Source: an uncultured bacterium
GTDB lineage: Bacteria > Fidelibacterota > Marinisomatia > Marinisomatales > CAYXUG01
Length of the DNA stretch: 64,000 nt
Direction of reading: 5' to 3'
Assembly (NCBI GenBank): GCA_964468655.1
Contig: CAYXUG010000002.1
Location: 920-64,919 of the forward strand
Below the pieces are notes generated by a model. The model was not told the origin of the DNA, ran no database searches, and saw only the letters and a list, made by a program, of their open reading frames with translations. Shown in pieces: positions 17,662-60,825 of this stretch. A program made the position numbers and the translations under genes. Position 1 is the stretch's first letter. Each line of letters opens with the position of its first letter.

Positions 17662-17663
17662 TT

Positions 17664-35423: not shown

Positions 35424-36938
35424 CTATTTAAGCAGTACCAATTTCTGAGTTTTCCGGAAAGAAAAATTCTGTCTGAATGGAGATAAACTTTCACCACTCA
35501 TGTGAACAAAGTAGGTACCACTGGCCAATTCGTTTGCATCCCAATTGATGCGATAAGTGCCCGGTTCTATGAATTTATTGAACAATGTTTCAACCCTTCT
35601 TCCTAGAACGTCATACGCATTAATAGTAACATGACTGAAAGATGAAATTTCGAAAACAATTTCCGTAGCTGCATTAAATGGATTTGGGAATGAATTTAAT
35701 GATTCTTTTTGCGGTAGTAATATTTCGGGATTACTTATTTCCACAGCGGTTGAATCATCAATTAACTCATCAATCCAGTAAAAGGCACCGAATAAAATTA
35801 GAATGGCTGCCTCAGAGTGGCCACCGCAAGGGCATTCTACCAATTCAACATTATTAGTATCAGCTCCATTTGCAATAAATGTGTTATAGGCAAGCACAGA
35901 GTTTTCAAAAGGAATCAGTTCATCATCGGGGCTGTGAAATAGTTTAAGAGGAGACTGGGGTATCCAATCATAAAGATCATTTGCTCTCAATGCAACTCTT
36001 AGAGGATGGTCATTATTTACGGTGAAATCTTCAACAACCTCATCTTTAAGAATATGGATAGGAATGGAAGGCATTTCGGCATCTATTTCACCGCCGGTAT
36101 GTTCCCCATCAAATAGTGATGGCAAAACATCTGCGTATTCATCTTTCAAATAATCCGAGGGTGAATCGTATAAATTGTACATGTCATTATAGGCAAATAG
36201 CATATAAGGCAGATAGTAGGGTGATCCATATTCCTGTTCCGAAAGCATGAGTTCAGTCATAATCCCTGACATATCATAAGCACCGGCCCCCGGAGCGGAG
36301 GCAGTAATTTCAAATTCCTCAGGAAACTGTTCCTCAATCATTTTCTGTGCCGCAAGTGTTGCATATCCTCCTTCAGAATATCCCATAAGGAACAACTGAT
36401 CATTTAATTGGAGATTGTTTTCTTCGCTGAATGTTTTTGATGCCCGAATCAAATCAATGACAGAATTAGCAGTTGGTTCAGCCAATTGGTAAGGGTGCAG
36501 TATTTCAGATACACCCAGCCCCAGATAATCAGGCAAGAGCGTAATGTACCCGGATGAAGCTCCCCATAATCCTAATAGTCCATATATACCTTCGAAGCCG
36601 TACACGGACGGAACGTCGTCTCTCAGAACAACTGTACCATGTTGAAAACTAAGAAATGGGAGTGCATAATTAGCGCCGTGGGGAATTACTACAGCGCCTG
36701 AGGCGACTGCTGTATTATTTTGTGGATCCAGTGTTTCATAAGTAACACTATAAATTGAAGCAGGATATTCTGGATCAAATGGGAATAAATTGAATGGAAA
36801 TTGGTCAAAAACTGAATCAATTTCCTCTATGGTAAAATAATCCAGTAATGTGTAAGAGATAAGATCACCCGGCTCGGCTGACAATTGAACATTGCAGGTG
36901 AGGATAAATAGAGCGATTATTACGATTTTTTTAAACAT
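35424..36938 (-). CDS. secreted alpha/beta-hydrolase (lipase/esterase-like) with T9SS-type C-terminal sorting domain
   Basis: 504 aa with a signal peptide and a nucleophile elbow (GYSEGG). The C-terminus is SFPNPFNAATEIVFEIS...GTYFVHM...KLVLLK. Confidence 0.7.
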   Translation of the reverse strand: MFKKIVIIALFILTCNVQLSAEPGDLISYTLLDYFTIEEIDSVFDQFPFNLFPFDPEYPASIYSVTYETLDPQNNTAVASGAVVIPHGANYALPFLSFQHGTVVLRDDVPSVYGFEGIYGLLGLWGASSGYITLLPDYLGLGVSEILHPYQLAEPTANSVIDLIRASKTFSEENNLQLNDQLFLMGYSEGGYATLAAQKMIEEQFPEEFEITASAPGAGAYDMSGIMTELMLSEQEYGSPYYLPYMLFAYNDMYNLYDSPSDYLKDEYADVLPSLFDGEHTGGEIDAEMPSIPIHILKDEVVEDFTVNNDHPLRVALRANDLYDWIPQSPLKLFHSPDDELIPFENSVLAYNTFIANGADTNNVELVECPCGGHSEAAILILFGAFYWIDELIDDSTAVEISNPEILLPQKESLNSFPNPFNAATEIVFEISSFSHVTINAYDVLGRRVETLFNKFIEPGTYRINWDANELASGTYFVHMSGESLSPFRQNFSFRKTQKLVLLK

Positions 36939-37976: not shown

Positions 37977-38005
37977 TTGACATTTTCAAGTGGTCATTAT
38001 ACAAT
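37977..38005 (+). promoter_or_regulatory. candidate sigma70-type promoter of the seven-gene motor operon
   Basis: TTGACA (37977-37982), a 17-nt spacer, then TACAAT (38000-38005), about 50 nt upstream of GTG 38056. The track's 37990 start would lie inside this promoter. Confidence 0.45.
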
Positions 38006-38055
38006 CATTTGCGCTGAATCGCTTCAGAACGTCCATAGATAATCCGAGGTCTTAC

Positions 38056-39210
38056 GTGAAAAGAAGAAAATGTTATTCAATTTTACTCACCTTTTTATTC
38101 CTGATAAATAATTACGCCTACCCAAAAGACAAAACATATACCCTCAGTGGGTTCATTATTGATGAATCCGGAGATAAGGTTCCAAGTGCACAGGTTCTTC
38201 TATTTTCGGAAGATGGTGAGGAAATAGGTGAAACGAATACGGGGAAACGATTTGGGGGAAAGGGTAAATTCAAATTTAAAAAATTGTCTCAGGGGAAATA
38301 TACTATCAAGGCATCGCAAGATGGATACGGAACAGGTATTGGCGATTATGTAATAATTGATGATGATTTGGATATTGAACTAACACTGCTTCCGGGTCTA
38401 GGGGAAGTAGCTGCGGGAGGCGAATTTGAAGAAGGAATTTCTGAAAGCGGTGAAACACCCGAGGATGTTGTGAGGATGGTTGAGGATGAATATGTTCTTA
38501 GCGAAATGAGTTTTGAAATGAAGAAAGTGAATGCAGAAGTAAGTCATCTGGGGAGCGAAATCCGTGAATTAAAAGCAAAGAGTGAGATGTGGACTAATCC
38601 ACTTTCGGTATACAGCAAGGAAATCATACTTGGTAATGGAAGCACAGTTTTTGGGAAGGTAGTATATCAGGATGAAGATATTTTAAAAGTAGAAACACTC
38701 ATTGGATATCTTGTAATCAATCGGGATCAAGTTGTACGGATTATTGAGAATGTAGTAGGGCAGGAAGAACCTGAATATATTCCGGAACAGATTAGAGAGA
38801 CGTATAGTCCGCCTCCCGTACCAAAATTGACAAAACCCCAATACACATCTGCTCATTCAACGGAAAGGATGCCGGGTCAAAAACGAGCCGCAAATGTGGT
38901 CCTTGTTGGAAATATATCAGAGACCAAAGACCGGTCCAACAACATTTCTCTCTCAGGTCAACTGAAAAACATCGGTGGCAATAGAGCCGATTTTGTTAAA
39001 ATGAATTTTGTTTTCAGAAAGAATTGGAGCGGTGAAACAAAAACACTAACCAGTTTTGTGAGAGGTGCATACCATACTTTTGAATCAGGAATTACAACCG
39101 ACTCTTCATTACTTCCCGGTGCGTCAGGGAGTTTCGAACTTGTTATCCCTGCTGACTTCGGTCCGTTTATTGGATATTCCTATGTGATAGATTGGGAGGA
39201 ATACGAGTGA
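38056..39210 (+). CDS. secreted protein: carboxypeptidase-regulatory-like (CarboxypepD_reg) domain, acidic linker, coiled coil, C-terminal beta domain
   Basis: Start is set at GTG 38056, with GAGG 8 nt upstream. The product begins VKRRKCYSILLTFLFLINNYAYP (signal). Later elements are SGFIIDESGDKVPSAQVLLF...GKYTIKASQDGYG, the coiled coil MKKVNAEVSHLGSEIRELKAKSEM, a Pro-rich stretch, and a C-terminal domain ...GASGSFELVIPADF. Confidence 0.6.
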   Translation: MKRRKCYSILLTFLFLINNYAYPKDKTYTLSGFIIDESGDKVPSAQVLLFSEDGEEIGETNTGKRFGGKGKFKFKKLSQGKYTIKASQDGYGTGIGDYVIIDDDLDIELTLLPGLGEVAAGGEFEEGISESGETPEDVVRMVEDEYVLSEMSFEMKKVNAEVSHLGSEIRELKAKSEMWTNPLSVYSKEIILGNGSTVFGKVVYQDEDILKVETLIGYLVINRDQVVRIIENVVGQEEPEYIPEQIRETYSPPPVPKLTKPQYTSAHSTERMPGQKRAANVVLVGNISETKDRSNNISLSGQLKNIGGNRADFVKMNFVFRKNWSGETKTLTSFVRGAYHTFESGITTDSSLLPGASGSFELVIPADFGPFIGYSYVIDWEEYE

Positions 39211-40247
39211 GAACAATCAACTTTTTGGGTCAGCTTGTAATTCTTTTAATTATATTTGCCAATTTCTGTTTTACTCAATCACCCTCTTCATCAAAAGAAG
39301 AAGGCTTTTTTTTGGATTTGGGAATTGTCATTGAACCTACCACAGGAAATGAAAAAGTAAACCGGGTGATTAAAAAACCCCCGGAGGAAGTAAAATTTTT
39401 CATTGAAAAGGAATCAAGCGGCATGCTGTTTATGGCAACTACTCAAGAAATAAAGGAAACACTGGAAAATATCAGCACAAAAATAGGTGCCATTGAACAT
39501 GCACTAAATTCCCTCGAGGTGGAAGTCCACAGAGATGTAGAAAGTTTACAAGAAAAGAATTTTAAACTTCAGGAAATGGTTTCAGAACTCAAAATTTCGA
39601 AAGATTACTGGTCAGCAGATGTTATTGACCTTATCACAGTAAGAGTAACAGAGAACATGCATAAGCCCCCCTATGAAGAAGGTGAGGTAAAAGTGGTAGT
39701 TTCACATTTGGAGGTAGATAGTTTGTTACCGGAAGAAGACAAAGCGCCGAAAGACTATCAATCTGAGAAAGTTAATTTGGTAATTATCAATGAAGAAATT
39801 GTTGAGAGTCCGCCAGGCAACATTACAGCAAATGAAATAATAGAGTTTGGGCAACCTAAGTCCCAGCCCAAAGTGTTTGACAGATTCTTATACATGAAAG
39901 CAGTATTTGCCTACCAAAGAAACGATTTTAATACTGCTCTTGAACAATTTGATAGTCTTGAACCTCAGGCGGCAGATCCTATAACTGCCGGTAATATTCT
40001 TTACTGGATGGCTGATTGTTATTATCGATTGGAGGAGTTTGACAGCGCCCTGCAAAAATTACAAGCCATTAGAACTAATTTACTATCAGATAAAATTGAT
40101 GATTCTGTCGTTCTAGAAGGTTTGATCTATAGAAGTATGGGGAATGAAGAAAAAGCGATAGCATCTTTTTCTCAAATTGTTGAAAAATATCCCGGGAGTG
40201 AATATTTCCAATTAGCGGAATTAGAGTTAAAAAAGGATTTAAAATGA
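39207..40247 (+). CDS. membrane-anchored/secreted coiled-coil + TPR protein (CpoB/YbgF-like architecture)
   Basis: GTG 39207 overlaps the upstream stop (GTGA), with GGGAGGA 6 nt upstream. An N-terminal hydrophobic segment and a coiled coil (IGAIEHALNSLEVEVHRDVESLQEKNFKLQEMVSELK) are followed by C-terminal TPRs ending ...EKYPGSEYFQLAELELKK, as in YbgF. Confidence 0.6.
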   Translation: MRTINFLGQLVILLIIFANFCFTQSPSSSKEEGFFLDLGIVIEPTTGNEKVNRVIKKPPEEVKFFIEKESSGMLFMATTQEIKETLENISTKIGAIEHALNSLEVEVHRDVESLQEKNFKLQEMVSELKISKDYWSADVIDLITVRVTENMHKPPYEEGEVKVVVSHLEVDSLLPEEDKAPKDYQSEKVNLVIINEEIVESPPGNITANEIIEFGQPKSQPKVFDRFLYMKAVFAYQRNDFNTALEQFDSLEPQAADPITAGNILYWMADCYYRLEEFDSALQKLQAIRTNLLSDKIDDSVVLEGLIYRSMGNEEKAIASFSQIVEKYPGSEYFQLAELELKKDLK

Positions 40248-41632
40248 TTACCAGAAATTGGAGTTCTATTATAAAAAGAATAATTATTTGCCAGTTTTTA
40301 TTAATGAATATTTCTTTTGCTGTAACAAGAGTAGCTTATACCCGCCCCGGGTATATGATGAAAATTCCTGCTACCAGCGCAACAAGATCCCCCTATCTAT
40401 TCAGTACCGGTTTTGGCATAGAAATTCACAGTTTCTCTCCTTTTAATCCAGCAAAGGGCGTTTATTTTTCAATGGACGTTTCTGAAAATGTGACTTTTGC
40501 ATTTTCCTCAGGGCAGGGGGCTGATACCACTGCTCTGGAAAATATTGCGGAATCAACTTATATTCCTCCGGTGGAATTTGGTTTTCACCTTCAGCGGCGA
40601 ATGTATGTGTATGGAGATATATCATTCTCACTTGGTATTCATGATATTGTATTTGAGAATGCCCCGGATGGGTTAAGTCTTGACCCGAAACAGCTTTCTA
40701 TCTTTGGGACTGTCGGGAGCCAGAAACAGTTAGGTGATTACCAACTCAGCACTTATATGGGATTTGGCACTGGTGGGTTTGCCAAGCAGGTTGCAGAAAC
40801 AACTCAAATAGAAACTGAGATTGATTCAACGGAAACAGGAACGTCAGCCGGTGTTTTTGCCGGATTTTTGTTAAAAATGCCCTATATGGAGAAATGGGGC
40901 GGTCTAGATATCGTGGGTGAATTCGATGGTTCCGGCATCAACGTGGGAATCCGCATCCCCCTTACCTCGGATTATCGCTTGAGTCTTGGGTTCACCCACA
41001 TAGAAAATTTACCCGATTTTTCACAAGAACCTTATGGTCCCGTACATCCAGGCTTAACGCTTGGTTTGGACATGTCAGTGATGCGTGGATTGAGGGGAAT
41101 GGTTCCCAAGCTTCTGGGTGGAATTGGGGATGGCCCCTCTCCACCTGTCCCCAGCGTAGGTTTGGTTGATTCAACTTTACTGGTAGCAGATATAGGAATG
41201 ACGCATCTCAGAGATTCTCTAAGGGTAGCCAGATATGACATGCGAAACCTGTCTACTCATGTTTCAGGCCTTAAACAAAAAACATCAATGCTTGAGGATT
41301 CAGTTAAAGTATTACGGCTGGAAAAAAATGTTACAAACAAAAATATCAATCGTGCTATGAGGCATCTTTCACGTTCTCTCAGGTATTTTTATGCTGGAGA
41401 CTACAGAGAGGCACTTCAGGAAGTAGAAACGGCTATGGAATTAAATCCAAATCTTGCTCTGGCTTATGCAAGAAGGGGTTCCATTTATTACAAGTTAGGG
41501 GATGTGCAAAGAGCAACCATCAACTGGAACCTAGCGCTTCAGTTGGATCCGGAATATGATGATGTTAGGAACATTTTGAAAGCGCTACATGAAAACAGAT
41601 TAATGACAACAAGTTTTAAAGGAGGTAAATAA
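40244..41632 (+). CDS. secreted beta-rich protein with C-terminal coiled coil and TPR repeats
   Basis: It has an ATGA overlap with the upstream gene and a signal-like N-terminus. A ~280-aa Gly/aromatic beta-type region (possibly OM-associated) is followed by a coiled coil and then TPRs (EALQEVETAMELNPNLALAYARRGSIYYKLGDVQRATINWNLALQLDPEY). Confidence 0.55.
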   Translation: MITRNWSSIIKRIIICQFLLMNISFAVTRVAYTRPGYMMKIPATSATRSPYLFSTGFGIEIHSFSPFNPAKGVYFSMDVSENVTFAFSSGQGADTTALENIAESTYIPPVEFGFHLQRRMYVYGDISFSLGIHDIVFENAPDGLSLDPKQLSIFGTVGSQKQLGDYQLSTYMGFGTGGFAKQVAETTQIETEIDSTETGTSAGVFAGFLLKMPYMEKWGGLDIVGEFDGSGINVGIRIPLTSDYRLSLGFTHIENLPDFSQEPYGPVHPGLTLGLDMSVMRGLRGMVPKLLGGIGDGPSPPVPSVGLVDSTLLVADIGMTHLRDSLRVARYDMRNLSTHVSGLKQKTSMLEDSVKVLRLEKNVTNKNINRAMRHLSRSLRYFYAGDYREALQEVETAMELNPNLALAYARRGSIYYKLGDVQRATINWNLALQLDPEYDDVRNILKALHENRLMTTSFKGGK

Positions 41633-41637: not shown

Positions 41638-42408
41638 ATGGATATTGCGACTATTGTAGGAATATTGTTTGGTATAGTGTCTATTTCTGGCGGTATTTTC
41701 ATAATGACCTCGGACTTTGCGGTGTTTGCTTCAGGATCAAGTTTTGCAATTGTGTTTGGGGGTATGGTTGCATCGGTATCAGTTGCATTCCCATTGGCTG
41801 AGGTGTTAAAACTGGGGTCTGCAATGGGAGCAGTTTTTAAAGGCGGATCCACCAAGCTTGGTGAACTTGTGGATGATGCTGTAAAAATGGCAGAAGCGGG
41901 CAGAAAAGGAATGTCTGATTTGGAAAAGGAAAAAGACAGTGTGAAAAATTTCTTTTTTAAAGATGGTATTCAAATGGTTATAGATGGTTATTCTGAGGAG
42001 GAAATAATTGAGATTCTTGAAACACGAATTAACTATAGAGAGATCAGAGAAAGATCTCAGGCAGGACTTTTTCAAACCATGGGAACCATGGCGCCTGCCT
42101 GGGGAATGATTGGGACACTTATTGGATTGGTGGTTATGTTGGCAGGATTTGGAGGAGGAGGAGGGACTGACGCATTGGGTGCAGGAATGTCTGCTGCACT
42201 GATAACCACTTTTTATGGTGCGGTATTTGCTAATTTATTTTTTCTGCCCATGGCTGCAAAATTGAATTCTAGACTTTCTCATACAAGTACACTGCAAGCA
42301 ATGCTTGTGGAAGCAGCACGTCTTATTCACCAAAGGAAACACCCTTTAATTATGAGAGAAAAACTGAATTCGTTTATACCTCCAAAAGAATGGAAGAAAG
42401 AAGGATAA
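41638..42408 (+). CDS. motA: flagellar-type stator protein MotA/PomA (4-TM MotA class, not ExbB/TolQ class)
   Basis: 256 aa. Two N-terminal TMs are followed by a ~90-aa cytoplasmic loop and then ...MAPAWGMIGTLIGLVVML...AALITTFYGAVFANLFFLPMAAKL, the MotA TM3/TM4 signature with Pro residues. Confidence 0.85.
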   Translation: MDIATIVGILFGIVSISGGIFIMTSDFAVFASGSSFAIVFGGMVASVSVAFPLAEVLKLGSAMGAVFKGGSTKLGELVDDAVKMAEAGRKGMSDLEKEKDSVKNFFFKDGIQMVIDGYSEEEIIEILETRINYREIRERSQAGLFQTMGTMAPAWGMIGTLIGLVVMLAGFGGGGGTDALGAGMSAALITTFYGAVFANLFFLPMAAKLNSRLSHTSTLQAMLVEAARLIHQRKHPLIMREKLNSFIPPKEWKKEG

Positions 42409-42412: not shown

Positions 42413-43174
42413 TTGGCTAAAAAATCTGAACCCCCCCCAAAAGAAGAAGGGTTGCCGGGTTGGTTTGCCACCTTTGCGGACATGATGACACTTCTCATGG
42501 CTTTTTTCGTTTTGCTGTTATCAATATCTACGATTGATCCTGTGAAGCTTCAACAGATGGCAGATTCTATGGGAAAGTCCGTTGGAAAGGATAAAAAAAT
42601 CGATAATGCTGCAATGACCCTAGGGGCCATCAAGAATAAACTGGATGAAATGGTTGAAGAAATGAATCCAGATCCGAAAACAGGTGAGAAACCTGTTGAA
42701 GTAAAATCGACCACAAAAGGTGTAACACTTGAAGTATCCTCAGATATCAGTTTTGGGTCAGGTTCTGCCAATTTAAAAATGGGAATTGTACCAACACTTG
42801 ACAAACTTGTTCCTCTTATTAATAAGTCATACAATATGGTAGCGATCGAAGGGCATACAGATAATGAACCATTACCAGAAAATGAAAACTACCCCAGCAA
42901 CTGGGAGTTATCTGGGGCAAGAGCGGCGGCTGTTGTTAGAAAGTTTATAGATTTAGGTGTCGATCCGAAACGGCTGGAAGCAGTTGGGTATGCACAATAT
43001 ATCCCGAGAAACGTCCCTACTGATGTGCTGATTGATGATGAAGTAATTAAGCAGTATAATGCCACAAAGGAATTAAAGGATAGAAACCGACGGGTCGCGA
43101 TTACCTTTAAAGCAACAAGTATTGATCAACAAGAAATGAGAAGAGCCGAACAAACCGCTTTGGCGGAAGAATAA
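42413..43174 (+). CDS. motB: flagellar-type stator protein MotB (OmpA-like peptidoglycan-binding C-domain)
   Basis: 253 aa with a TTG start. GWFATFADMMTLLMAFFVLLL carries the conserved channel Asp. The C-terminal OmpA-like block is IEGHTDNEPL...NWELSGARAAAVVRKF...NRRVAITF. Confidence 0.85.
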   Translation: MAKKSEPPPKEEGLPGWFATFADMMTLLMAFFVLLLSISTIDPVKLQQMADSMGKSVGKDKKIDNAAMTLGAIKNKLDEMVEEMNPDPKTGEKPVEVKSTTKGVTLEVSSDISFGSGSANLKMGIVPTLDKLVPLINKSYNMVAIEGHTDNEPLPENENYPSNWELSGARAAAVVRKFIDLGVDPKRLEAVGYAQYIPRNVPTDVLIDDEVIKQYNATKELKDRNRRVAITFKATSIDQQEMRRAEQTALAEE

Positions 43175-43204: not shown

Positions 43205-44791
43205 ATGAAAAATAAATTATTGTTATGGTCACTTTTATTAAGCGCCGGTTTTATCTGGAATGTTTGCATCGCACAGGAGTCAACATTCCTTGCTCAAAAA
43301 TTAATGTTTGAAAATGACCTGAAGAATCGAATTGAAAAAGCGCTGCAAAAGGTTATTGATGACCATCGGTACGTTTTGGATGTATCAGTCACACTGAAAT
43401 TTTCACCTACCGTGAAAGAAGAAATTACCTACAAACCCTCCAAAAAACGCGAAACTCAGTTTGGAGCCTCTGAAATGAAGACAGATGACCAAACAACAGA
43501 GATGCCCGGAAAAAGAACACGGTTTACAGGAATACCAATTCCGGGATTTGATTTTCACATTGAGGAAGGTGAGGTGCCATCGGAAGTTTCTGAAACAGTA
43601 AAAGAAATCGCACCGGAGATTTTTGTGGGTGAACGGGAAGTTGTGTCAGAGACATATACGGATATCACAGCATCTATGCCGCAGATTGAAAAGATGGATA
43701 TTTTTTGTTTACTTCCTGAGGATGCATCTACTGAGCTCATTGAAAATGTGCGTCAAATAATTGGGGTATCGGCACATATTGACAGGCGGAGAGGTGATGC
43801 AATCCGAATTCAAAAGGCATCTTTTAAAGAAAGGCGAGGTAAATCTGCTGAAGAAGTCATTTTAAAAAGTATTGCTGAAAAAATTGATCAGTTGGAAAAG
43901 AATCAAATAGTAGAAGAAATTGAAGTGCAGGAAGAAATTAATTGGCAGGAAGAAATCCAAAATTGGCAGGAAGAAGAAGCAAATAGAAGAGAAGAAGAAC
44001 ATATAGCATTTTTGGCAGCATTGAATCAATTTGAAAAAGAGCGTGATGAAGAAGAATTACAAAGAGTAAAAGATGAGATGACTGCAAGTTTTAAAGCAGA
44101 ATTAGATAAAAAAGACCAGAAACTGGAGCAATATAAAAAAACAATTGAATCCGGCGGTTTATCGGAGGAGGAACTTAAAGAAACAAGCGGAACGGTGAAT
44201 ATTTTAGAAGAAGAAAGAGCAAAGTTAGATTCAATGTTGGATGCAAAAAGAAAAGTACTAGACAGTGTATTTAGTGATATGAACCAACAATCCCGGCAAT
44301 CCAGTAGTAATTTACCCATATATTTAATGAGTGCAGTTTCATTATTGGCAGTCATTGCACTTGCAGGTGTTATTCTTTTTAATGGAAGAAAGCCTAAATA
44401 CGTTATGCCCCCTCCTTGGGCAATGCCTCGTCCCCGGCCAAAAAAAAAGAAAAAAAAAGTAAAAATTGATGATAACAACAATGGAGAGACAAAGACCGCA
44501 TCTCCCACAACACAGACGCAACCCGCACCAACACAAACTCCTCCACCAACTCAACCCCTACCTCCCGGCGAAGATCCAAGCGTACTGCAGTCTGAAATCA
44601 AATCAGTCCGTAAATCCATCATGTCTATGAGTACAGGCCAGCCCGATACAGCCACATCTATTGTGAAGGAATGGCTGCAGGAGGAAGCACCCCCACCTCC
44701 GGAAGAACCACAGCAAGCAGCAATCACCCCATCTGTTGAAGAAGAGGAAGAAGGCGGAAAGAAGAAGAAAAAAAAGAAAAAGAAAAAGTAG
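43205..44791 (+). CDS. FliF-like ring protein: signal/TM1, RBM3-type (YscJ_FliF_C-like) domain, long E/K coiled coil, TM2, Pro-rich cytoplasmic tail with FliG-docking-type helix, poly-Lys ends
   Basis: 528 aa with AAGGAG upstream. By eye, LMFENDLKNRIEKALQKVI..VLDVSVTLKFSP..EEITYKP aligns with Salmonella FliF LKFANDVESRIQRRIEAIL..VHAQVTAQLDFAN..TEEHYSP. Likewise ..EVVSETYTDI....IEKMDIFCLL....RRRGDAIRIQKASF aligns with ..ETSNYEVDRTI...IERLSVAVVV...DKRGDTLNVVNSPF. TM2 is IYLMSAVSLLAVIALAGVILF. The tail ..QPDTATSIVKEWLQEE resembles the FliF C-terminus ..NDPRVVALVIRQWMSNDHE. Confidence 0.65.
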   Translation: MKNKLLLWSLLLSAGFIWNVCIAQESTFLAQKLMFENDLKNRIEKALQKVIDDHRYVLDVSVTLKFSPTVKEEITYKPSKKRETQFGASEMKTDDQTTEMPGKRTRFTGIPIPGFDFHIEEGEVPSEVSETVKEIAPEIFVGEREVVSETYTDITASMPQIEKMDIFCLLPEDASTELIENVRQIIGVSAHIDRRRGDAIRIQKASFKERRGKSAEEVILKSIAEKIDQLEKNQIVEEIEVQEEINWQEEIQNWQEEEANRREEEHIAFLAALNQFEKERDEEELQRVKDEMTASFKAELDKKDQKLEQYKKTIESGGLSEEELKETSGTVNILEEERAKLDSMLDAKRKVLDSVFSDMNQQSRQSSSNLPIYLMSAVSLLAVIALAGVILFNGRKPKYVMPPPWAMPRPRPKKKKKKVKIDDNNNGETKTASPTTQTQPAPTQTPPPTQPLPPGEDPSVLQSEIKSVRKSIMSMSTGQPDTATSIVKEWLQEEAPPPPEEPQQAAITPSVEEEEEGGKKKKKKKKKK

Positions 44792-44799: not shown

Positions 44800-45735
44800 A
44801 TGATTACAGATTATACCCGTTTATCAGGATTGGACAAAACAGCTATCCTTTATAAAGAATTGGGAGAAAGTCTTGCCTTAACACTTATAAAAGGATTAAG
44901 TGAAACTGATGTAAGAAAGATCAGGGCTAGGATTCGAGAAATGGAACCGGAGCCCATATCATTCTTAGTGAAGAAGACAGTACTTGAACAGTTCTACCTT
45001 GCTTTTATAACCAAGAAGTTCTCAGAGGATGGTAGTGAAGATACCAAAAAACCGTTTGAATTTCTCCATAATTTAGAAGAGGAACGGCTTATTGCTCTGC
45101 TTGAAGTTGAGGAGCCAAGAATAATTGCAGTTGCCCTCGCGCAGGAAACCAGTGAGCGGAGAATGGCAGTATTAAACAGGTTGACTCCTGAAGCAAAAGG
45201 ACGAGCACTTCTTGAAATAGGTAATTTAAGTTCTATTCCTCTGGAAGCTGTAGTCAGCATTGCTACAGACCTTGAAGAAAAATCCCATTTTCTTCCTAGA
45301 GCTGTTGAATTTTCCCGCGGCGGCGGAAAGGATATTGCTGATATCCTCGGTCAAATGAGCTCAGACGATGAAGAAAAATACCTTGAAGCAATTAACAGGG
45401 AATCACCAGACCTTGCTAAAGAGATAAAAAAATACCACCTCACCTTTGATGATGTTTTTTCTTTCCCGGATAATATAATAAGAGACCTGATGAATTCTGT
45501 TGATTTGGATATAGTAGCAATGGCATTGAAAGGTATTCCCCAGGAAACCGCAGATCGCGTGATAGGTAATCTTCCTCAAAAAAAACAGGCAATGTACGAG
45601 CCGGTAGAGGGGGCAACGCCAAAACGTAAAATTGATGATGCAAGAGGGAAAATAGTAAGCGCCGCAAGGGAGATGGAAAAAGAAGGAAGATTCAGCTTGG
45701 AAGATATACTTGGCGGTGGGGAAATGGTTGATTAA
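44800..45735 (+). CDS. FliG-like rotor/switch protein (full-length N, M and C domains)
   Basis: 311 aa. By eye it is collinear with T. maritima FliG. Matching blocks are GLDKTAILYKELGESLALTLIKGLSETDV (N domain), PFEFLHNLEEERLIALLEVEEPRIIAVALAQ (ARM-M), GGGKDIADILGQM (GG linker), and LTFDDVFSFPDNIIRDLMNSVDLDIVAMALKG...NLPQKKQ (C domain, MFxFEDL-type motif). Confidence 0.8.
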   Translation: MITDYTRLSGLDKTAILYKELGESLALTLIKGLSETDVRKIRARIREMEPEPISFLVKKTVLEQFYLAFITKKFSEDGSEDTKKPFEFLHNLEEERLIALLEVEEPRIIAVALAQETSERRMAVLNRLTPEAKGRALLEIGNLSSIPLEAVVSIATDLEEKSHFLPRAVEFSRGGGKDIADILGQMSSDDEEKYLEAINRESPDLAKEIKKYHLTFDDVFSFPDNIIRDLMNSVDLDIVAMALKGIPQETADRVIGNLPQKKQAMYEPVEGATPKRKIDDARGKIVSAAREMEKEGRFSLEDILGGGEMVD

Positions 45736-53793: not shown

Positions 53794-55362
53794 TTAATGT
53801 TTAAAGCACCTTTGCCCGGTAAATGTCATGGTGGTTCCGTGCTCATCACAGGCGGCGATAACTTCTTCATCACGGATTGATCCGCCCGGCTGGATAACTG
53901 CTGAAATGCCTGTTCCGGCAAGTTTATCGATACAGTCCCGAAACGGGAAAAATGCATCTGAACATAAAACAGTACCCTTCAAATTGTCTCCTGATTTGTT
54001 AATGGCAATATCTACCGCATCCACGCGGCTTACCTGTCCGGCACCAACCCCGACAGTTGTTTTGTTCTTAATAATCAAAATTCCGTTTGATTTCACATAC
54101 TTCAACACTTTCCAGCCAAAAAGCATATCCGTAATTTGATCATCAGTTGGGCGGACTTTTGTAACTACCTTTAACTGCCCATGAGTGACTGCACTTAAAT
54201 CAGAGTCTTGAACGAGAATTCCCCCATCCACGTATCGATATTCCAATTTTGGTTCGCGCTTTTCAACTTTGCCAATTTCAAGTACACGAAGATTTTTCTT
54301 TTTTGAGAAAATTGAAAGCGCATCTTTATTAAATGATGGCGCAAGAACGATTTCAGCAAACACTTTTGAAATAGCTTCGGCAATTTCAGCAGTACATTTT
54401 CTGTTTAATGCAATAATACCGCCGAACGCAGATAGACTGTCTGCATTAAAAGCTCGCATATACACATCAAGAAGATCATTTCCTACCGCCACTCCGCAGG
54501 GATTGGCATGTTTCACAACCACGCAAGCAGTTTCATCAAATTCCTTAAGGCAAGCCAGCGCGCCATCAGCATCCATGATATTGTTATAGGACAATTTTTT
54601 ACCCTGATGGATTTTTGCGTTTAAAATATTATTACTTTGATCGTTTGGAATCTGATATGCAGAAGCAGATTGATGGGGATTTTCACCATACCGTAAATCG
54701 GAATGTTTTTCAAAAGTGATGCTGAAATCTTCAGACAGTTTTTCATTTTTGAGATAATTATGAATAATGGTATCATATTTTGCTGTATGACCAAATGCTT
54801 TAGCCGATAATTTTTTTCGTATTTCAAACGAGACAGTATTTGATTCTTTTAACTCATCCATGACAGTGCCATAATCTGCAGGATCAATAACCACTCCAAC
54901 CCATCCCACGTTTTTAGCAGCGCTCCGAATCATGGTTGGTCCGCCGATGTCTACATTTTCCAAAGCCATTGCAAGATCGCAATCCTCCCGAGAAATAGTA
55001 TCCGAAAATGGATAGAGATTACAAACAACTAGATCAATCCATTTAATATTGTTTGCTTCAGCGTCATCTGAGTGCTTGTCCCTCAGACCAAGAATTCCAC
55101 CTTCTACCAATGGGTTAATAGTCTTCACACGACCGTCCATAATTTCAGGGAATTGGGTGTAGTCACTTACGTCTAGTACAGGAATGTTTGAATCACGGAG
55201 TGCCCTTGCTGTACCCCCGGTTGAAAGGATTTCTACATTCATTTCTGTAAGAGCTTTAGCAAATTCCACCACGCCGGTTTTATCGAATACGGAAATAAGC
55301 GCCCGGGTAATTTTGATTGGATTTTGATTAACCATAAAGTGTTTAAGTTTTAATGTGTTCAT
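53794..55362 (-). CDS. purH: bifunctional AICAR transformylase / IMP cyclohydrolase
   Basis: 522 aa with RALISVFDKTG and the C-terminus ...FTGQRCFKH. The start may instead be the second Met (55335). The first 9 codons (MNTLKLKHF) are built from the junction repeat motif. Confidence 0.95.
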   Translation of the reverse strand: MNTLKLKHFMVNQNPIKITRALISVFDKTGVVEFAKALTEMNVEILSTGGTARALRDSNIPVLDVSDYTQFPEIMDGRVKTINPLVEGGILGLRDKHSDDAEANNIKWIDLVVCNLYPFSDTISREDCDLAMALENVDIGGPTMIRSAAKNVGWVGVVIDPADYGTVMDELKESNTVSFEIRKKLSAKAFGHTAKYDTIIHNYLKNEKLSEDFSITFEKHSDLRYGENPHQSASAYQIPNDQSNNILNAKIHQGKKLSYNNIMDADGALACLKEFDETACVVVKHANPCGVAVGNDLLDVYMRAFNADSLSAFGGIIALNRKCTAEIAEAISKVFAEIVLAPSFNKDALSIFSKKKNLRVLEIGKVEKREPKLEYRYVDGGILVQDSDLSAVTHGQLKVVTKVRPTDDQITDMLFGWKVLKYVKSNGILIIKNKTTVGVGAGQVSRVDAVDIAINKSGDNLKGTVLCSDAFFPFRDCIDKLAGTGISAVIQPGGSIRDEEVIAACDEHGTTMTFTGQRCFKH

Positions 55363-55406
55363 GTGTTAAAGAAGGATGTGCTACGAACACTTTAGCACCC
55401 AAACAC
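55339..55406. repeat. GTGTT[ACT]/[AGT]AACAC motif cluster at the purN|purH junction (5 copies, includes a 10-bp hairpin)
   Basis: The copies are GTGTTT 55339-44, GTGTTC 55355-60, GTGTTA 55363-68, GAACAC 55385-90 and AAACAC 55401-06. The arms taatgtgttc (55351-60) and gaacacttta (55385-94) pair at 9 of 10 positions around a 24-nt loop, joining the purN stop to the purH start codon region. Confidence 0.75.
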
Positions 55407-55991
55407 TTTCGCACGATGAATCAATTTGATTGATTCAACAAAAGCTTCACCTTCTAATTTTTGGACCTTTGCCTTCAATGTTTCCACTGTATCATCTTTT
55501 TCAACATCACACTTTTTTTGAACTAAAATGGGTCCTCTATCTACTTCTTCTGTTACAAAGTGGATGGTGCATCCGGTTTCAGTATCTCCGTTTTTCAGCA
55601 CCTCCTCGTGGACGTTCATGTCCATCCCGCCGGCGTATTTGGGAAGTAATGATGGATGAACATTCAGGATGCTATCTTTCCATTCCAGACAGAATTCATT
55701 AGACAAAATTCTCATAAAACCGATGAGTAAAACAAGGTTAACTTTATGATATTTTAGAACAGTTGTCATTTCTTTATCAAACTCTTCCCGGCTCTTTTTT
55801 TTATGGGATATAAAAACTGAGGGTATACGATGGTTATCCGCTCGCTCAAGGATGTACGCGTTTTTCCGGTTGGAAATGACTACAGCCACTTCCGCTTCAA
55901 GTTCACCGGAAGATATGACATCCAGAATGGCTTGCAAGTCGGTGCCTTTGGTGGAGCCTAAAATTCCCAATCGTAGTTTTTTAATGTTCAT
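55392..55991 (-). CDS. purN: phosphoribosylglycinamide formyltransferase
   Basis: 199 aa with GILGSTKGTDLQAIL and NVHPSLLP...G, typical of PurN. Confidence 0.9.
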   Translation of the reverse strand: MNIKKLRLGILGSTKGTDLQAILDVISSGELEAEVAVVISNRKNAYILERADNHRIPSVFISHKKKSREEFDKEMTTVLKYHKVNLVLLIGFMRILSNEFCLEWKDSILNVHPSLLPKYAGGMDMNVHEEVLKNGDTETGCTIHFVTEEVDRGPILVQKKCDVEKDDTVETLKAKVQKLEGEAFVESIKLIHRAKVFGC

Positions 55992-56000
55992 ATTTTAAAA

Positions 56001-56079
56001 GTGTTTATGTGCTCGGGTTTTCAAGTGTTAAAGTTAAAAAATCATAAATGACCGTGAACACTTTAACACCTTAACACTT
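56001..56079. repeat. motif cluster at the purD|purN junction (5 copies; 3-unit 8-nt periodic array; 10-bp hairpin)
   Basis: The copies are GTGTTT 56001-06, GTGTTA 56025-30, and GAACACTT TAACACCT TAACACTT at 56056/56064/56072. The arms gtgttaaagt (56025-34) and actttaacac (56060-69) form a perfect 10-bp stem with a 25-nt loop. Confidence 0.75.
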
Positions 56080-57381
56080 TAATTCTTTAATATGGTCAAT
56101 TCGTTCTTGAATTAAACCATCCGTTCCAATATCTTTTCGATGAAAAAGCGGTCCTTTAATCGCAGACACTTCTCTTTCAGCAATTCGCTCCGCTTCAGAA
56201 ATAGAATCCGCCATCCCAATAACAGCAACAGTTCGGCTGCCGGCTTCAACAAGTTGACCGTTTTTGATATCAACGGACGCATAAAATAATCCATCATGAT
56301 TTTTGATATTTGAAACATCAATGAGTTCGCCTTTGACCGGTTCGTCCGGATACCCTTCCGGAACCGCGTATTTGCAGACTGTTGCCAGATGCCCAAATGA
56401 TATATACTTCTCATGCAAATTTCCATCCACGATGCCCATACAAACTTCCACAAAATCTGACTCCAGAAGGGGAAGCACATTCATGGCTTCCGGATCACCA
56501 AACCGGGCATTGTATTCAATCAGCTTCACACCGTCAGCCGTGGCGATGAACCCTCCGTAGAGGATACCCTTGTATCCTTCGCCGAACTCCTCCTTAAGTG
56601 CGCCCGCCGTCGCTTCATTTATTTGCCGGGCGTGGGTAATGTCATTATCTGTAAGGAACGGAAGGTTGTGATCGGCGTCTGAGTAGCTGCCCATCCCGCC
56701 GGTGTTGGGTCCCGTATCTCCCTCATAGGCACGTTTATGATCCTGTACAGCCGGCATGTGTTTGAGATGATCGCCATCGCAGAAACTCATGAGGGAAAAC
56801 TCCTGTCCTATAAGTTTTTCTTCAATGATGAAATTACCACCGTTATTTACCAAATCTTGACAGTAAGCTAAAGCATCCTCATGAGAATTTAAATGATCGC
56901 CGGCTACTTTTACACCTTTTCCGCCAGCCAGTCCATCATATTTTACCACATAGTTATCGCCTAATTCGTTTAGAAAATCAGCAACCCCTTCGAAGGAGGA
57001 AAACGTTTTGTATTTTGGACTACCGGGAATATTGTATTCAGTAAGTAAATCCCGGGTGAAGGATTTAGACGTTTCAATTTGAGCGAGTTCTTTTTTTGGT
57101 CCCACGACTCCGACACCGGAATTCCATAGAGCATCAGCAACTCCATTAGCCAGAGGATTTTCCGGCCCGATAATAGCAAGATCAGCACCAACTTCTGTGG
57201 CATAGCTAGTGACAATGTTGGGATTATTGATATTATCTACAACGATCTGTTTAGTGAGCTCAGCTATGCCAGGATTCATGTTGGAGGCCAGGCAATAGAT
57301 TTCTTTTTCCTGAGGTGAACGGACCAGAGCGCGGACAATGGCATGTTCCCTTGCGCCTGAACCTAAAACAAGGATGTTCAA
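56071..57381 (-). CDS. purD: phosphoribosylamine--glycine ligase
   Basis: 436 aa. It begins MNILVLGSGAREHAI, has an ATP-grasp core, and its start overlaps the purF stop by 4 nt. Confidence 0.95.
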   Translation of the reverse strand: MNILVLGSGAREHAIVRALVRSPQEKEIYCLASNMNPGIAELTKQIVVDNINNPNIVTSYATEVGADLAIIGPENPLANGVADALWNSGVGVVGPKKELAQIETSKSFTRDLLTEYNIPGSPKYKTFSSFEGVADFLNELGDNYVVKYDGLAGGKGVKVAGDHLNSHEDALAYCQDLVNNGGNFIIEEKLIGQEFSLMSFCDGDHLKHMPAVQDHKRAYEGDTGPNTGGMGSYSDADHNLPFLTDNDITHARQINEATAGALKEEFGEGYKGILYGGFIATADGVKLIEYNARFGDPEAMNVLPLLESDFVEVCMGIVDGNLHEKYISFGHLATVCKYAVPEGYPDEPVKGELIDVSNIKNHDGLFYASVDIKNGQLVEAGSRTVAVIGMADSISEAERIAEREVSAIKGPLFHRKDIGTDGLIQERIDHIKELKC

Positions 57382-58853
57382 GTTTCGGTACGTTCCAAAT
57401 TTCGCTGATCTTCCATTTTCAGCATTTTTTGTTCGTCCACATCACCCGTTACATACCATCGGTCTAAACAAGCCATGCAGGGTCTGTCTATATTATGTTC
57501 CCCCTTTCGCGTCACAGCTTCAACCAGATCATCAATTTCCTGATACAATAAAATATCTACACCGATATACTTCTGAATTTCATCCACTGATTTATTATGG
57601 GCAATTAGTTCCTGGCGGGTAGGCATATCAACGCCATAAAAACAGGGAGATATTACAGGGGGACACGATGAAACAAAATAAATTTTATTGGCGCCAAACT
57701 CACGAACCATTCTTACAATTTCCCGACTTGTATTTCCTCTTACAATACTGTCATCTACAATGAGAACATCTTTCCCGCTAATTTCAATTTCCTGCGGTAC
57801 AAGCTTCTGTTTAACGGATCGCTTTCTTTCATTTTGGCCCGGCATGATAAATGTCCTGCCAATAAATGGGTTTTTATATAACCCCTCAGAGTAACGGACA
57901 CCAATTGTATGCGCAAATGAAAGTGCAGCGGTGTTGGCGGTTAATGGTGCGGGAATAACAATATCAGGATAAATATCCGGATATTTATTCTTCCATTTTT
58001 CAGCAAGATTTTGCCCCATTCTTAACCGCGACCGGTAAACGCTAACATCATTCATCATCGTATCCGGTCTAGAAAAATAGACGTATTCAAAAATACAGGG
58101 AGTAAAGATATCCTTTTTAACAATTTTATTTTTCATCGACCCATGCTCATCAATATAGATAACTTCTCCCGGCTGAACATTCCCGGCCAATTCAAAGCCC
58201 AAAGAATAAAACATGGTCGTTTCTGATGAGAAAATGTAATCTTTAGTCCCATCAGGATTAGTTCTCACTCCTTTGGAAAACGGGCGTATTCCGTGAGGGT
58301 CGCGGAATACAACAAGACCTTTATTTATAATCATTCCTATAACCGAATAAGCCCCGCTGACTCTATCAAATACAGATTCTACTGCAGTACATATATGGTC
58401 GAATAAATCATTCTTATTATTATTTTCCACAGAATGACTTAATGCGTTTGCGAAAATGTGTAGTATCACTTCAATGTCTGCAGTTGTATTCATGAACCGG
58501 CGATCTTTTTCAGCGAGATCTTTTACCAGTTTTGTGTAGTTGACTAGATTACCATTATGCGCCATAGAAATTCCATATGGGACGCCAGTCCAGACCGGCT
58601 GTGCATCTTCCTTGCTGAATCCGCCTACTGTAGGATATCGTGTGTGTCCGATTCCAATATTCCCCAATAATCGTGACATGTTGTTTTCATCAAAAATGTC
58701 ACGTATCAGTCCGACTCCTTTTTTTACATGAAACCGTTTATTATAGGTCATAATTCCCGCCGCATCCTGCCCGCGATGCTGCAAGTGAATCAAACTTTCG
58801 TATATTTCACCGGCTACCGGTTTATGAGAGTATATTCCAACTACACCGCACAT
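57378..58853 (-). CDS. purF: amidophosphoribosyltransferase
   Basis: 491 aa. MCGVVGIY carries the N-terminal nucleophile Cys, and the PRTase motif VLIVDDSIVRGNT is present. Confidence 0.95.
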   Translation of the reverse strand: MCGVVGIYSHKPVAGEIYESLIHLQHRGQDAAGIMTYNKRFHVKKGVGLIRDIFDENNMSRLLGNIGIGHTRYPTVGGFSKEDAQPVWTGVPYGISMAHNGNLVNYTKLVKDLAEKDRRFMNTTADIEVILHIFANALSHSVENNNKNDLFDHICTAVESVFDRVSGAYSVIGMIINKGLVVFRDPHGIRPFSKGVRTNPDGTKDYIFSSETTMFYSLGFELAGNVQPGEVIYIDEHGSMKNKIVKKDIFTPCIFEYVYFSRPDTMMNDVSVYRSRLRMGQNLAEKWKNKYPDIYPDIVIPAPLTANTAALSFAHTIGVRYSEGLYKNPFIGRTFIMPGQNERKRSVKQKLVPQEIEISGKDVLIVDDSIVRGNTSREIVRMVREFGANKIYFVSSCPPVISPCFYGVDMPTRQELIAHNKSVDEIQKYIGVDILLYQEIDDLVEAVTRKGEHNIDRPCMACLDRWYVTGDVDEQKMLKMEDQRNLERTET

Positions 58854-58859
58854 TAGATT

Positions 58860-58931
58860 TTACGCAAGTGTTCATGTGCGTAAGTGATAAGGTGTTCACG
58901 AACACTCGAACACTTTAACACTTTAACACTA
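58860..58931. repeat. motif cluster at the purB|purF junction: hairpin displaying GTGTTC, a GTGTTC-AC-GAACAC dyad, and a 4-unit 8-nt periodic array
   Basis: The stem TTACGCA (58860-66) / TGCGTAA (58877-83) encloses the loop AGTGTTCATG. The dyad lies at 58892-58905. The array GAACACTC GAACACTT TAACACTT TAACACTA starts at 58900, 58908, 58916 and 58924. Confidence 0.8.
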
Positions 58932-58944
58932 TGTTTTTTTCTTC

Positions 58945-60300: not shown

Positions 60301-60322
60301 ATGTTTAAGTGTTCAGGTGTTT
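60284..60322. repeat. motif cluster at the 4HB|purB junction (4 copies), includes the left 13-bp inverted-repeat arm
   Basis: The copies are GTGTTT 60284-89, GTGTTC 60293-98 (abutting the purB start codon), GTGTTC 60309-14 and GTGTTT 60317-22. The arm gtgttcaggtgtt lies at 60309-60321. Confidence 0.75.
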
Positions 60323-60788
60323 TTGTATTTGAGTCTTCTCGACTTATATATTCATCAGGAATATCCCAACAATTTTGATTGAATCCATATTCTGCAATAG
60401 GCTCACTAACCTTATTGTTTGAAATGGAATTATTCACATGTTTTAATAAACCCATTGTAATAGCACGTACTTCTTCAGTGTCGTTTTGAACCGCCGTTAC
60501 TTTGTCGTTCTCTAAATAATTTTGATCAAGGATAATATACAATAAACTTTTTACTTCCATTGCTGAACTTTGTGAAATATCTAAAAAGCGTATAAATTCT
60601 TTGCGATGGAACCGAGAAAATCCTTCTGCAATATTCGTCATAGCTGAAACAGCAGCCCGTCGTAGTTGATTTTTTAAACCGAAGTCTTTTGATAGTGGTC
60701 CTGATTTTGTAATGAAATAAATATTGTTCACCAATACACGAGCTTTTTGCCAACAAATTAGATCTTCAAATTGTGTGATTTTACTCAT
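60297..60788 (-). CDS. four-helix-bundle protein (23S rRNA intervening-sequence protein family), inserted in the pur operon
   Basis: 163 aa. FEDLICWQKARVLVNNIY...LKNQLRRAAVSAMTNIAEGFSRFHRKEFIRFLDISQSSAMEVKSLLYI matches the family pattern (W.kA..L...iy......d.......Qi.RaavSi..NIAEG..r.s.kef..fl.iA.gS..E). An extra ~45-aa C-terminal tail is present. Confidence 0.8.
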   Translation of the reverse strand: MSKITQFEDLICWQKARVLVNNIYFITKSGPLSKDFGLKNQLRRAAVSAMTNIAEGFSRFHRKEFIRFLDISQSSAMEVKSLLYIILDQNYLENDKVTAVQNDTEEVRAITMGLLKHVNNSISNNKVSEPIAEYGFNQNCWDIPDEYISREDSNTKTPEHLNI

Positions 60789-60808
60789 ATCTTAAATCCA
60801 TTACCACT

Positions 60809-60824: not shown

Positions 60825-60825
60825 T

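Follow-up and report, generated by a model that had tools for sequence, protein, structure and literature searches.

The closest known system to the locus described here is the core of the bacterial flagellar motor, in which the FliF MS-ring carries the FliG upper C-ring and is driven by MotA5B2 or PomA5B2 stators. Charged residues of the FliG torque helix touch the cytoplasmic loop of MotA (R90/E98 in E. coli), and the RBM1/RBM2 portion of FliF, its SctJ-homology region, surrounds the flagellar export gate. The combination of FliG with a flagellar-type stator is usually taken as diagnostic of flagella. Here, we analyzed a gene for a FliG-like protein in a 64,000-nt stretch of DNA from an uncultured Marinimicrobia bacterium (GenBank assembly GCA_964468655.1, contig CAYXUG010000002.1, positions 920 to 64,919; referred to as the window). 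The gene is the last of seven tightly packed genes that also encode a FliF-like protein and a MotA/MotB pair (Table 1). We consider it reasonably probable that its product receives torque as the rotor protein of an envelope motor independent of flagella, encoded by a seven-gene operon conserved across marine Marinimicrobia. This reading is carried by the list of parts with their folds, by the charges and the operon that are conserved, by the missing switch and export features, and by strong purifying selection.

Although divergent, the protein is genuinely related to FliG of the flagellar rotor. Pfam detected FliG_N (5e-9), FliG_M (8e-8) and FliG_C (3e-22) in that order along its 311 residues, and HMMER aligned it collinearly with solved FliGs, among them those of T. 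maritima (1lkv; 1.6e-21) and, across residues 7–264, Salmonella (8umd). An AlphaFold2 (AF2) model computed from an input of 57 family members had a mean predicted local distance difference test (pLDDT) score of 83. With this model, Foldseek returned only FliG structures at E ≤ 4e-6, the top 13 matches all being FliG, and single-domain FliG entries were also matched, with a Foldseek probability of 1.00. The modeled C domain fits the MotAB-bound FliG_C of 8ucs at 1.6 Å over 83 columns and 1qc7 at 1.8–1.9 Å, and the M domain fits 4fq0 at 1.7 Å. In the glycine linker between these two domains, R173, G175 and G176 do not vary across the 57-sequence family alignment, where G174 reaches at least 90% conservation; the linker pairs with KVGG of T. 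maritima. An earlier note, made by a model from the sequence alone, had proposed a protein with all three domains in collinear arrangement with FliG, on which Pfam domain order, HMMER and the AF2 fold now agree; the strings it had quoted were found at residues 104–115 (EEPRIIAVALAQ), 174–176 (GGG) and 257–277 (NLPQKKQAMYEPVEGATPKRK). The gene is under strong purifying selection, with ratios of nonsynonymous to synonymous substitution rates (dN/dS) of 0.02–0.13 when only unsaturated pairs are considered.

Nevertheless, the protein is not a FliG equivalog, on four counts: curated score, EHPQR motif, gene context and clade. Its scores stayed below the cutoffs of TIGR00207 (104 bits versus 226.7) and PRK05686 (36 versus 550), and no NCBIfam model captures any of the seven proteins of the cluster. 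The FliM-binding EHPQR motif reads E104-E-P-R, with E139 at the position of R160. In these columns, canonical FliGs have H in 16 of 21 sequences, Q in 21/21 and R160 in 20/21; in the stand-alone FliG-like family, Q is changed to R or K in 26 of 28 members and R160 to E in 24 of 28, and the same two changes recur in a second family in which FliG is fused to a FliF-like part (see below). Judged by these alignment columns, the FliM-binding motif is lost in the stand-alone and the fused family alike. The protein would resemble FliG in function only in the torque-receiving sense.

The gene context carries more weight. All seven genes lie on the + strand between 37990 and 45735, with tight or overlapping junctions, in the order g1, g2, g3, MotA, MotB, FliF-like, FliG-like. 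A scan with one genome per species identified 212 genomes carrying a relative; among the best 80 of these 212, the taxon-labeled ones are all Marinimicrobia or unclassified metagenome-assembled genomes (MAGs) of the FCB group, the others being entered as ‘uncultured bacteria’, and the closest FliG-like relatives with a source name are all Marinimicrobia (SAR406/Fidelibacterota). When the seven proteins were used as tblastn queries, order and orientation were identical in every locus with enough upstream flank (~60 loci), and the genes flanking the cluster varied between those loci. MotA is the most conserved gene of the cluster (64–88% identity) and g2 the least (24–53%), the latter remaining unmatched by tblastn in 7 loci that carry the rest. 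The fixed order amid differing flanks, the purifying selection and the separate clade described below substantiate the proposal of a dedicated rotor–stator pair rather than a spare flagellar part. As to other flagellar genes, none was found by Pfam among the other large open reading frames (ORFs) of the window, which encode metabolic proteins, an ExbB/TonB set, proteins with type IX-type sorting domains and giant surface proteins. In tblastn searches of 1.47 Mb of Marinimicrobia flanks with the FliM domain and four canonical FliGs, the FliG-like gene itself was the sole match, and no fliE, fliH, fliI, fliM or fliN adjoins it in ~80 loci. The sole cultured member of the phylum is non-motile (PMC11652737).

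The protein encoded directly upstream supplies a plausible ring partner. The YscJ_FliF_C profile (PF08345) fell just short of its cutoff with this FliF-like protein (1.4e-4); most family members pass it, and some are named ‘FliF C-terminal domain-containing’ by NCBI. The AF2 model (pLDDT 70) begins with a transmembrane or signal helix, followed by a β/α domain resembling RBM3/S-ring (57–205) that harbors a low-confidence insert (77–145) at the position of the FliF β-collar. Two long periplasmic helices (215–315 and 321–376) then lead to a second transmembrane helix (TM2, ~377–399), a Pro/Lys-rich linker, two conserved helices (458–494, ..IVKEWLQEE) and a poly-Lys tail; E464, S474, P480, W490, E494 and A495 are invariant in the family. 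In Foldseek, 18 of 18 significant matches were to FliF RBM3/S-ring structures (E 7e-6 to 5e-5, template modeling score up to 0.64). For RBM1/RBM2, there was neither a PF01514 match nor a counterpart in the AF2 model, and a canonical RBM1/2 query gave no tblastn match in 1.47 Mb of Marinimicrobia DNA around the cluster. This absence fits a rotor ring without a secretion apparatus inside. FliF-like proteins measure 382, 438 and 504 aa in the basal relatives L087, L088 and L089 compared with 479–617 aa in members of the marine clade. Neither the short basal proteins (382–438 aa) nor the fused homologues of Oceanospirillales have the long helical insert, and in the latter TM2 follows the RBM3-like domain with hardly anything in between. 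The insert of long periplasmic helices is thus probably specific to a lineage and variable in length, and it might define a spacing within the periplasm.

These helices bear on the main alternative, in which the same parts form no rotating ring. MotAB would then act as an energizer of the TolQR/ExbBD kind and the FliF-like and FliG-like proteins as a transducer comparable to TolA, TonB or GldM, with single units or small oligomers being pulled or twisted and thereby altering the conformation of periplasmic TPR or outer-membrane partners. The TolA- or GldM-like appearance of the long helices in the marine clade would suit such a device, as would the Pal-like OmpA domain of MotB, the coiled-coil plus TPR architecture that g2 shares with YbgF/CpoB, and the variation of accessory genes among lineages. 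However, the periplasmic domain of the FliF-like protein matches only ring-forming FliF RBM3, the helices are missing from the homologues just named, and the FliG-like protein retains the three ARM domains and the Gly-Gly linker used in ring stacking. We regard this alternative as unlikely, though worth keeping in view, and favor a rotating ring.

The junction between the two genes adds a further facet. The FliF-like ORF ends in ten Lys codons (44759–44788) followed by a TAG stop. The FliG-like start codon lies 8 nt past this stop; its frame is −1 relative to the FliF-like ORF and stays open over the preceding 60 nt. Among 77 loci, the two frames are the same in 60 (separated by one stop and mostly 9–12 nt apart), −1 in 12 and +1 in 5. 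Given the dnaX-type heptamer in the Lys run and the open −1 frame, a −1 slip would yield a FliF–FliG fusion as in Oceanospirillales; the peptide KKKEKEKVEDKMITDY at the junction would mark a fusion arising by −1 frameshift or readthrough, if produced. The spacing could also merely be an inherited Shine-Dalgarno spacer. A poly-Lys tail of 5–11 residues behind an acidic/Gly stretch is kept in nearly all FliF-like members, and a second KKKKKK run follows TM2 (window positions about 44427–44450); these Lys runs might bind the membrane or an acidic partner.

Evidence for contact between the two proteins came from a homologue search that was exhaustive over 1.84 billion representatives. The next-best matches past the Marinimicrobia family were not canonical FliGs but fusions of 580–690 aa, in which an N part of ~300 residues (signal/membrane segment, RBM3-like domain, membrane helix) is followed by a full FliG-like region. 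In hhalign, this N part proved homologous to the FliF-like family of Marinimicrobia (probability 98.8%, E 7e-17), and that of one fusion (P0159) matches YscJ_FliF_C at 7e-8. Such fusions occur in a Saccharospirillaceae MAG (MCJ8313092.1), in Bermanella, in Thalassolituus and in the cultured Marinicellulosiphila megalodicopiae (AP023087.1, complete genome), always in a cluster of five genes (unknown protein, TPR protein, fusion, MotA, MotB) with housekeeping genes around. These genera are ordinarily flagellated; if this holds for the carriers, the module there is additional to a flagellum. By the Rosetta-stone argument, the natural fusion indicates that the two proteins function in contact with each other. 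In a neighbor-joining tree of 52 sequences (308 columns, including 21 canonical FliGs), canonical, stand-alone and fused FliGs formed three clades with bootstrap values of 100, 96 and 92, respectively, placing the stand-alone family outside the canonical clade. Other domain combinations also surfaced in the metagenome search: a 996-aa FliM-DUF4116-FliG fusion (P0184), a 787-aa fusion of full-length FliF (RBM1-3) with FliG (P0165), and an 833-aa protein combining YscJ_FliF_C and histidine-kinase domains with FliG_M/C (P0443).

With clade and partner at hand, one may ask whether the gene could be an ordinary FliG of a flagellated bacterium whose other flagellar genes lie elsewhere in the genome, the odd torque helix reflecting lineage tuning. 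Records of JGI and some of NCBI indeed name the protein ‘flagellar motor switch protein FliG’, and its three FliG domains and the flagellar-type stator would fit. This explanation is nonetheless very improbable in view of the TIGR00207 score far below cutoff, the lost EHPQR motif, the separate clade, a FliF-like partner that is devoid of RBM1/RBM2, the lack of adjacent fliE/H/I/M/N in ~80 loci, the non-motile cultured member of the phylum, and the housekeeping surroundings of the Oceanospirillales module.

The torque-helix region deserves closer consideration. Its charged residues are K261, K262, E267, E270, K275 and R276. HMMER paired NLPQKKQAMY-EPVEGATPKR with NMSKRAAALLKDELEYMGPVR of T. maritima FliG, two further gaps following PKR, and in a MAFFT alignment with the 21 canonical FliGs the distance from the conserved Asn to the V/I-E-E-A-Q anchor is 3 residues shorter in the FliG-like protein. 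In the HMMER mapping, K264 of E. coli FliG corresponds to K244 (kept), R281 to K261 (with K262 adjacent), D288 to E267, D289 to P268, and R297 to R276 (with K275 adjacent); the D288/D289 acidic pair is thus replaced by E267-P268, with E270 close by. In the AF2 model, the torque helix spans only residues 260–265 and is followed by a loop (266–274) and then the last long helix. In terms of sequence, four of the five classic torque charges have a conservative counterpart, whereas the second acidic residue and roughly one turn of the helix are gone. The hand alignment in the earlier note was ungapped and goes wrong past M265. It had assigned Lys to both basic positions, which holds for R281 but not for R297, represented by Arg, and had placed the D288/D289 pair on P-V, one step off the E-P given by the profile alignment. 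The altered charge pattern that it inferred is real as regards the acidic pair, and the helix is shortened, but the equivalents of the basic residues K264, R281 and R297 and one or two acidic residues remain.

No other stretch of the protein is as well conserved as LPQKKQAM[YF]EPxEG..KR: L258, P259, K261, K262, Q263, A264 and M265 are invariant in the 57 family members, and E267, P268, E270, G271, K275 and R276 are at least 90% conserved, at an overall identity among these sequences of only 60–71%. This near-invariance argues that the altered motif is not a product of chance or drift. Basal relatives (P0123, P0126 and P0132) that occupy the same kind of gene cluster retain a canonical-style LPxRxQxILEDEMQ..PRR including the acidic pair, so the shortened helix is derived and fixed in the main marine clade; it is not a defining feature of the motor module. 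The same data speak to the idea of a decaying remnant of a lost flagellum without current function, to which the reduced gene set and the degenerate EHPQR motif and DD pair might seem to point. The low dN/dS values, intact ORFs, a gene order fixed in at least 60 species-level genomes, the invariance of the altered torque motif itself and the co-conservation of dedicated accessory genes run counter to decay; selection and synteny data effectively refute this explanation, which we consider extremely improbable.

On the stator side, MotA aligned end to end (residues 1–249) with 9lu9 (5e-40), 8ucs/6ysf (6e-38) and PomA of 8bri (1e-30). The NCBIfam models for MotP, MotA and PomA matched it at 1e-52 to 1e-46, all below their cutoffs (best MotP, 177 bits versus 394), and ExbB and TolQ models merely reached E~0.005. 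By these comparisons, the cluster MotA is a flagellar-type stator subunit, with four transmembrane segments and an expanded torque-generating domain on the cytoplasmic side. It shares 33–36% identity with solved flagellar MotAs, which among themselves share 35–38%, and pairwise scores place the Oceanospirillales MotAs not specifically nearer to it; a branching of MotA, too, outside flagellar stators finds no backing in identities that fall within the spread of solved flagellar MotAs. The APAWGMIGT motif of TM3 and the FFLP motif of TM4, with their conserved prolines, are retained. In the cytoplasmic loop, R89/K90 and E96 are the equivalents of E. coli R90 and E98 and of PomA R88/K89 and E96, and do not vary within the family; one residue is deleted between R/K and E, and the second acidic position (E97 of PomA) is K. 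The RK motif, one-residue deletion and LEK or LER likewise occur in MotA of the basal relatives L088 and L089, whose FliG-like proteins have a canonical-length ..ILEDEMQ..PRR torque helix. Since these relatives with a canonical helix share the MotA loop, no MotA change is correlated with the FliG deletion, which disposes of the compensatory change in MotA that had been envisaged. The related suggestion of a retuned stator–rotor interface holds for the remodeled FliG side, but the electrostatic logic is kept and the R90/E98 equivalents of MotA are retained.

MotB combines a transmembrane, ion-binding Asp, a plug helix and an OmpA-like peptidoglycan-binding domain; the Asp, read from the sequence, is D23 in FADMMTLLMAFF (42479–42481). 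The NCBIfam models for MotB and MotD matched it at 1e-45, below cutoff. Separate from this pair, the window contains an ExbB (MotA_ExbB 7e-30) to TonB_C (1e-21) set at 16206–18308 (+), and the cluster MotAB is therefore presumably not the Ton energizer of the cell. The C-terminus of MotA (42350–42408), HPLI(V/M)REKLNSFIPPKEWK, is almost invariant in the Marinimicrobia family; in the same alignment, neither the solved flagellar MotAs nor those of Oceanospirillales have it.

The flagellum-independent motor that we favor may be pictured as follows. The N domain of the FliG-like protein would bind the FliF-like protein at its two conserved C-terminal helices, and RBM3 would drive their assembly into an inner-membrane ring. 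Ion flow through peptidoglycan-anchored MotA5B2 would turn MotA against the short charged torque segment, with K261/K262 and K275/R276 possibly facing E96 of MotA and E267/E270 facing R89/K90. As no FliM or FliN gene lies nearby, the ring would turn in one direction only. Movement might then pass via the RBM3 ring into the periplasm and on to the TPR and putative outer-membrane partners, relayed in the marine clade also by the helical insert of ~150 residues. Our best guess at the output is that the machine moves or energizes an outer-membrane or cell-surface component.

Several points weigh against this picture. The ring, its rotation and the binding of the FliF tail to FliG_N are deductions based on homology, on the modeled monomer and on the fusion that occurs in nature, and the tail of the FliF-like protein gave no sequence match to solved FliF C-termini. 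The search for flagellar genes was confined to the window and ±10 kb flanks. The neighbor-joining tree is unrooted, its distances are saturated, and it samples only those canonical FliGs that are nearest to the query. Finally, g1 and the N-terminal domain of g3 showed no homology to the first gene of the Oceanospirillales clusters in hhalign comparisons; as the accessory proteins, TPR apart, are not detectably homologous, the output may differ between lineages.

A broader interpretation, which we put forward tentatively and with less conviction, is that of a free-standing ion-driven rotary machine, assembled from rotor and stator parts of the flagellar kind, whose load is not a flagellum; the stand-alone and the fused family would possibly represent a sister lineage. 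Under it, candidate outputs are an outer-membrane or surface component or, in an FCB-group phylum with type IX-type cargo, secretion or the movement of surface adhesins, and the two families may stand beside the flagellar FliF/FliG/MotAB core instead of being its late offshoot. If the sister lineage were true, the existence of a rotor–stator module, and perhaps also its evolution, would not depend on the type III export apparatus.

Either way, the locus is relevant to the question of whether the rotor–stator core of the flagellum can stand without the type III secretion core. An RBM3-only FliF/FliG/MotAB/TPR module without gate, rod, hook, filament and switch would put the best-studied rotary motor of bacteria to a new use and provide a natural minimal rotor–stator system for the study of torque generation. 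The family also offers a natural experiment, in that the basal R..ED..RR helix and the shortened KK..EP..KR of the main clade face the same MotA loop. The module should be experimentally testable, because homologues exist in cultured Oceanospirillales including one with a complete genome (AP023087.1). Among non-motile bacterial phyla, Marinimicrobia rank with the most abundant in the dark ocean. Since annotation pipelines and surveys read FliG as flagellar, a non-flagellar FliG in SAR406 is an annotation trap; some surveys deduce motility from fliG/fliM/fliN matches (PMC10359470).

Table 1. Features of the seven-gene cluster (window coordinates).
Feature	Position	Strand	Basis
g1, exported protein, 406 aa as called, CarboxypepD_reg (Ig-like) domain	37990-39210	+	PF13620 6e-10
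g2, exported coiled-coil protein with C-terminal TPR, YbgF/CpoB-like architecture	39192-40247	+	TPR_6 1e-10
g3, exported protein, 462 aa, C-terminal TPR pair	40244-41632	+	TPR_2 5e-11
MotA/PomA-type stator A subunit, 256 aa	41638-42408	+	MotA_ExbB 1e-27 (Pfam)
MotA cytoplasmic-loop charged motif R89-K90-G-M-S-D-L-E96-K-E98	41902-41931	+	MAFFT with 9lu9, 8ucs, PomA
MotB-type stator B subunit, 253 aa	42413-43174	+	MotB_plug 1.5e-19, OmpA 1.5e-13 (Pfam)
FliF-like membrane protein, 528 aa	43205-44791	+	YscJ_FliF_C 1.4e-4, AF2, Foldseek
A_AAA_AAG heptamer (44770-44776) in poly-Lys run, TAG stop (44789-44791)	44770-44791	+	read from sequence
FliG-like rotor protein, N + M + C domains	44800-45735	+	ATG start, 311 aa
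EEPRIIAVALAQ, residues 104-115, degenerate equivalent of FliM-binding EHPQ	45109-45144	+	column counts
Gly-Gly(-Gly) linker G174-G176 between M and C domains	45319-45327	+	family alignment
Torque-helix region N257-K277, NLPQKKQAMYEPVEGATPKRK	45568-45630	+	HMMER, MAFFT, conservation, AF2 model

The three accessory proteins at the start of the cluster are less readily interpreted. g1 has an N-terminal signal-like segment and a highly conserved C-terminal part of ~200 aa, with dense invariant columns at 172–405; a profile search against solved structures revealed no homologue beyond the Ig-like domain. Its true start may lie downstream of the called GTG, because a promoter-like site sits at 37977–38005, the lone notable site (11/12) in a scan for sigma-70 promoters and terminators that was otherwise uninformative, promoters being found at or below shuffle expectation. 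g2 matched tol_pal_ybgF (TIGR02795) at 8e-12 with 46 bits versus a cutoff of 90. In g3, a conserved, Gly/aromatic-rich N-terminal part of ~300 aa is followed by a coiled coil and the near-invariant TPR pair (invariant runs at 402–453); its profile search against solved structures gave a match in the TPR part only, which is 35–38% identical to the TPR protein of the Oceanospirillales clusters, and its N-terminal domain is possibly an outer-membrane barrel. The first gene of the fused-type clusters (L003-L006, L090, L091) encodes a protein of 352–383 aa without a family match, whose C-terminal half ends in ..GGATYEIMLGYRL, suggestive of an outer-membrane β-barrel.

Elsewhere in the window, Por_Secre_tail domains (type IX C-terminal sorting) terminate a 769-aa Sortilin/Vps10-like protein (458–2767, −) and a 504-aa secretory-lipase-like protein (35424–36938, −), which suggests that the genome uses cargo of the type IX secretion system kind. 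A giant surface-type pair within 3974–13341 (−) consists of a 1232-aa protein (FG-GAP, Big_9, He_PIG) next to one of 1079 aa (FG-GAP), with a small dockerin-domain protein (3974–4753) nearby. A PF05635 ‘23S rRNA intervening sequence protein’ gene (60297–60788, −; 6e-34) sits within a run of purine-biosynthesis genes (53794–63932).

Full-text literature searches, with most subscription journals outside their coverage, returned no published description of the module, and a study on MotAB evolution does not mention it. Two candidate systems were set aside: for Zorya (ZorAB), PADLOC gave only a generic similarity of MotB to ZorB and no match for MotA and the other five proteins, and for Tol-Pal only g2 is CpoB/YbgF-like, below cutoff, and MotA is not TolQ-like. 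Some parallels are instructive all the same. GldLM/PorLM, TolQRA-Pal-CpoB and ExbBD-TonB are likewise ion-driven 5:2 inner-membrane motors that, with no flagellum involved, convey energy through the periplasm to partners in the outer membrane; their periplasmic transducers are helical, and the coiled-coil plus TPR architecture of CpoB resembles that of g2. Their A subunits, however, have condensed cytoplasmic domains and work without FliG or FliF, whereas the stator here is of the flagellar type with plug, OmpA domain and torque loop. PflA/PflB of Campylobacter and Helicobacter and MotX of Vibrio are periplasmic TPR/Sel1 scaffolds that hold stators around the rotor. Like these, the TPR proteins of the cluster are exported and occur with MotB-type stators, with no relationship detected beyond generic TPR.

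Closer precedents come from proteins that join FliF and FliG. In Chlamydiaceae, which have no flagella, FliF and FliG are naturally fused and the periplasmic region is shortened; the fusion is treated in the context of injectisomes, and no MotAB or TPR cluster has been described with it (Bergeron 2016, PMC4768692). It is a partial precedent for FliF and FliG acting outside a flagellum; the cluster described here differs in having the full FliG N/M/C set, RBM3 only and a co-encoded stator. The Oceanospirillales clusters are alike in the homology of both halves, the Q-to-R and R160-to-E changes, the adjacent TPR, MotA and MotB genes and the absence of flagellar neighbors. They differ in that the two proteins are fused, in the gene order unknown-TPR-fusion-MotA-MotB, in lacking the long helical insert, in another first accessory protein, in a single-Gly linker and in a torque helix of canonical length with variable charges.

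Compared with the flagellar core itself, the cluster is without RBM1/RBM2 and EHPQR, has no FliM/FliN switch nearby and no export apparatus, rod, hook, filament or chemotaxis link near it. Its torque helix lacks 3 residues and has E-P in place of DD, its gene order is TPRs-motA-motB-fliF-like-fliG-like, and its proteins score below the NCBIfam equivalog cutoffs. What the two have in common are four protein families and their folds: FliG with N, M and C domains, MotA with the R/E loop, MotB with plug, Asp and OmpA domain, and FliF with RBM3/S-ring and a C-terminal tail in the cytoplasm. The adjacency of the FliF-like and FliG-like genes also mirrors that of fliF and fliG.

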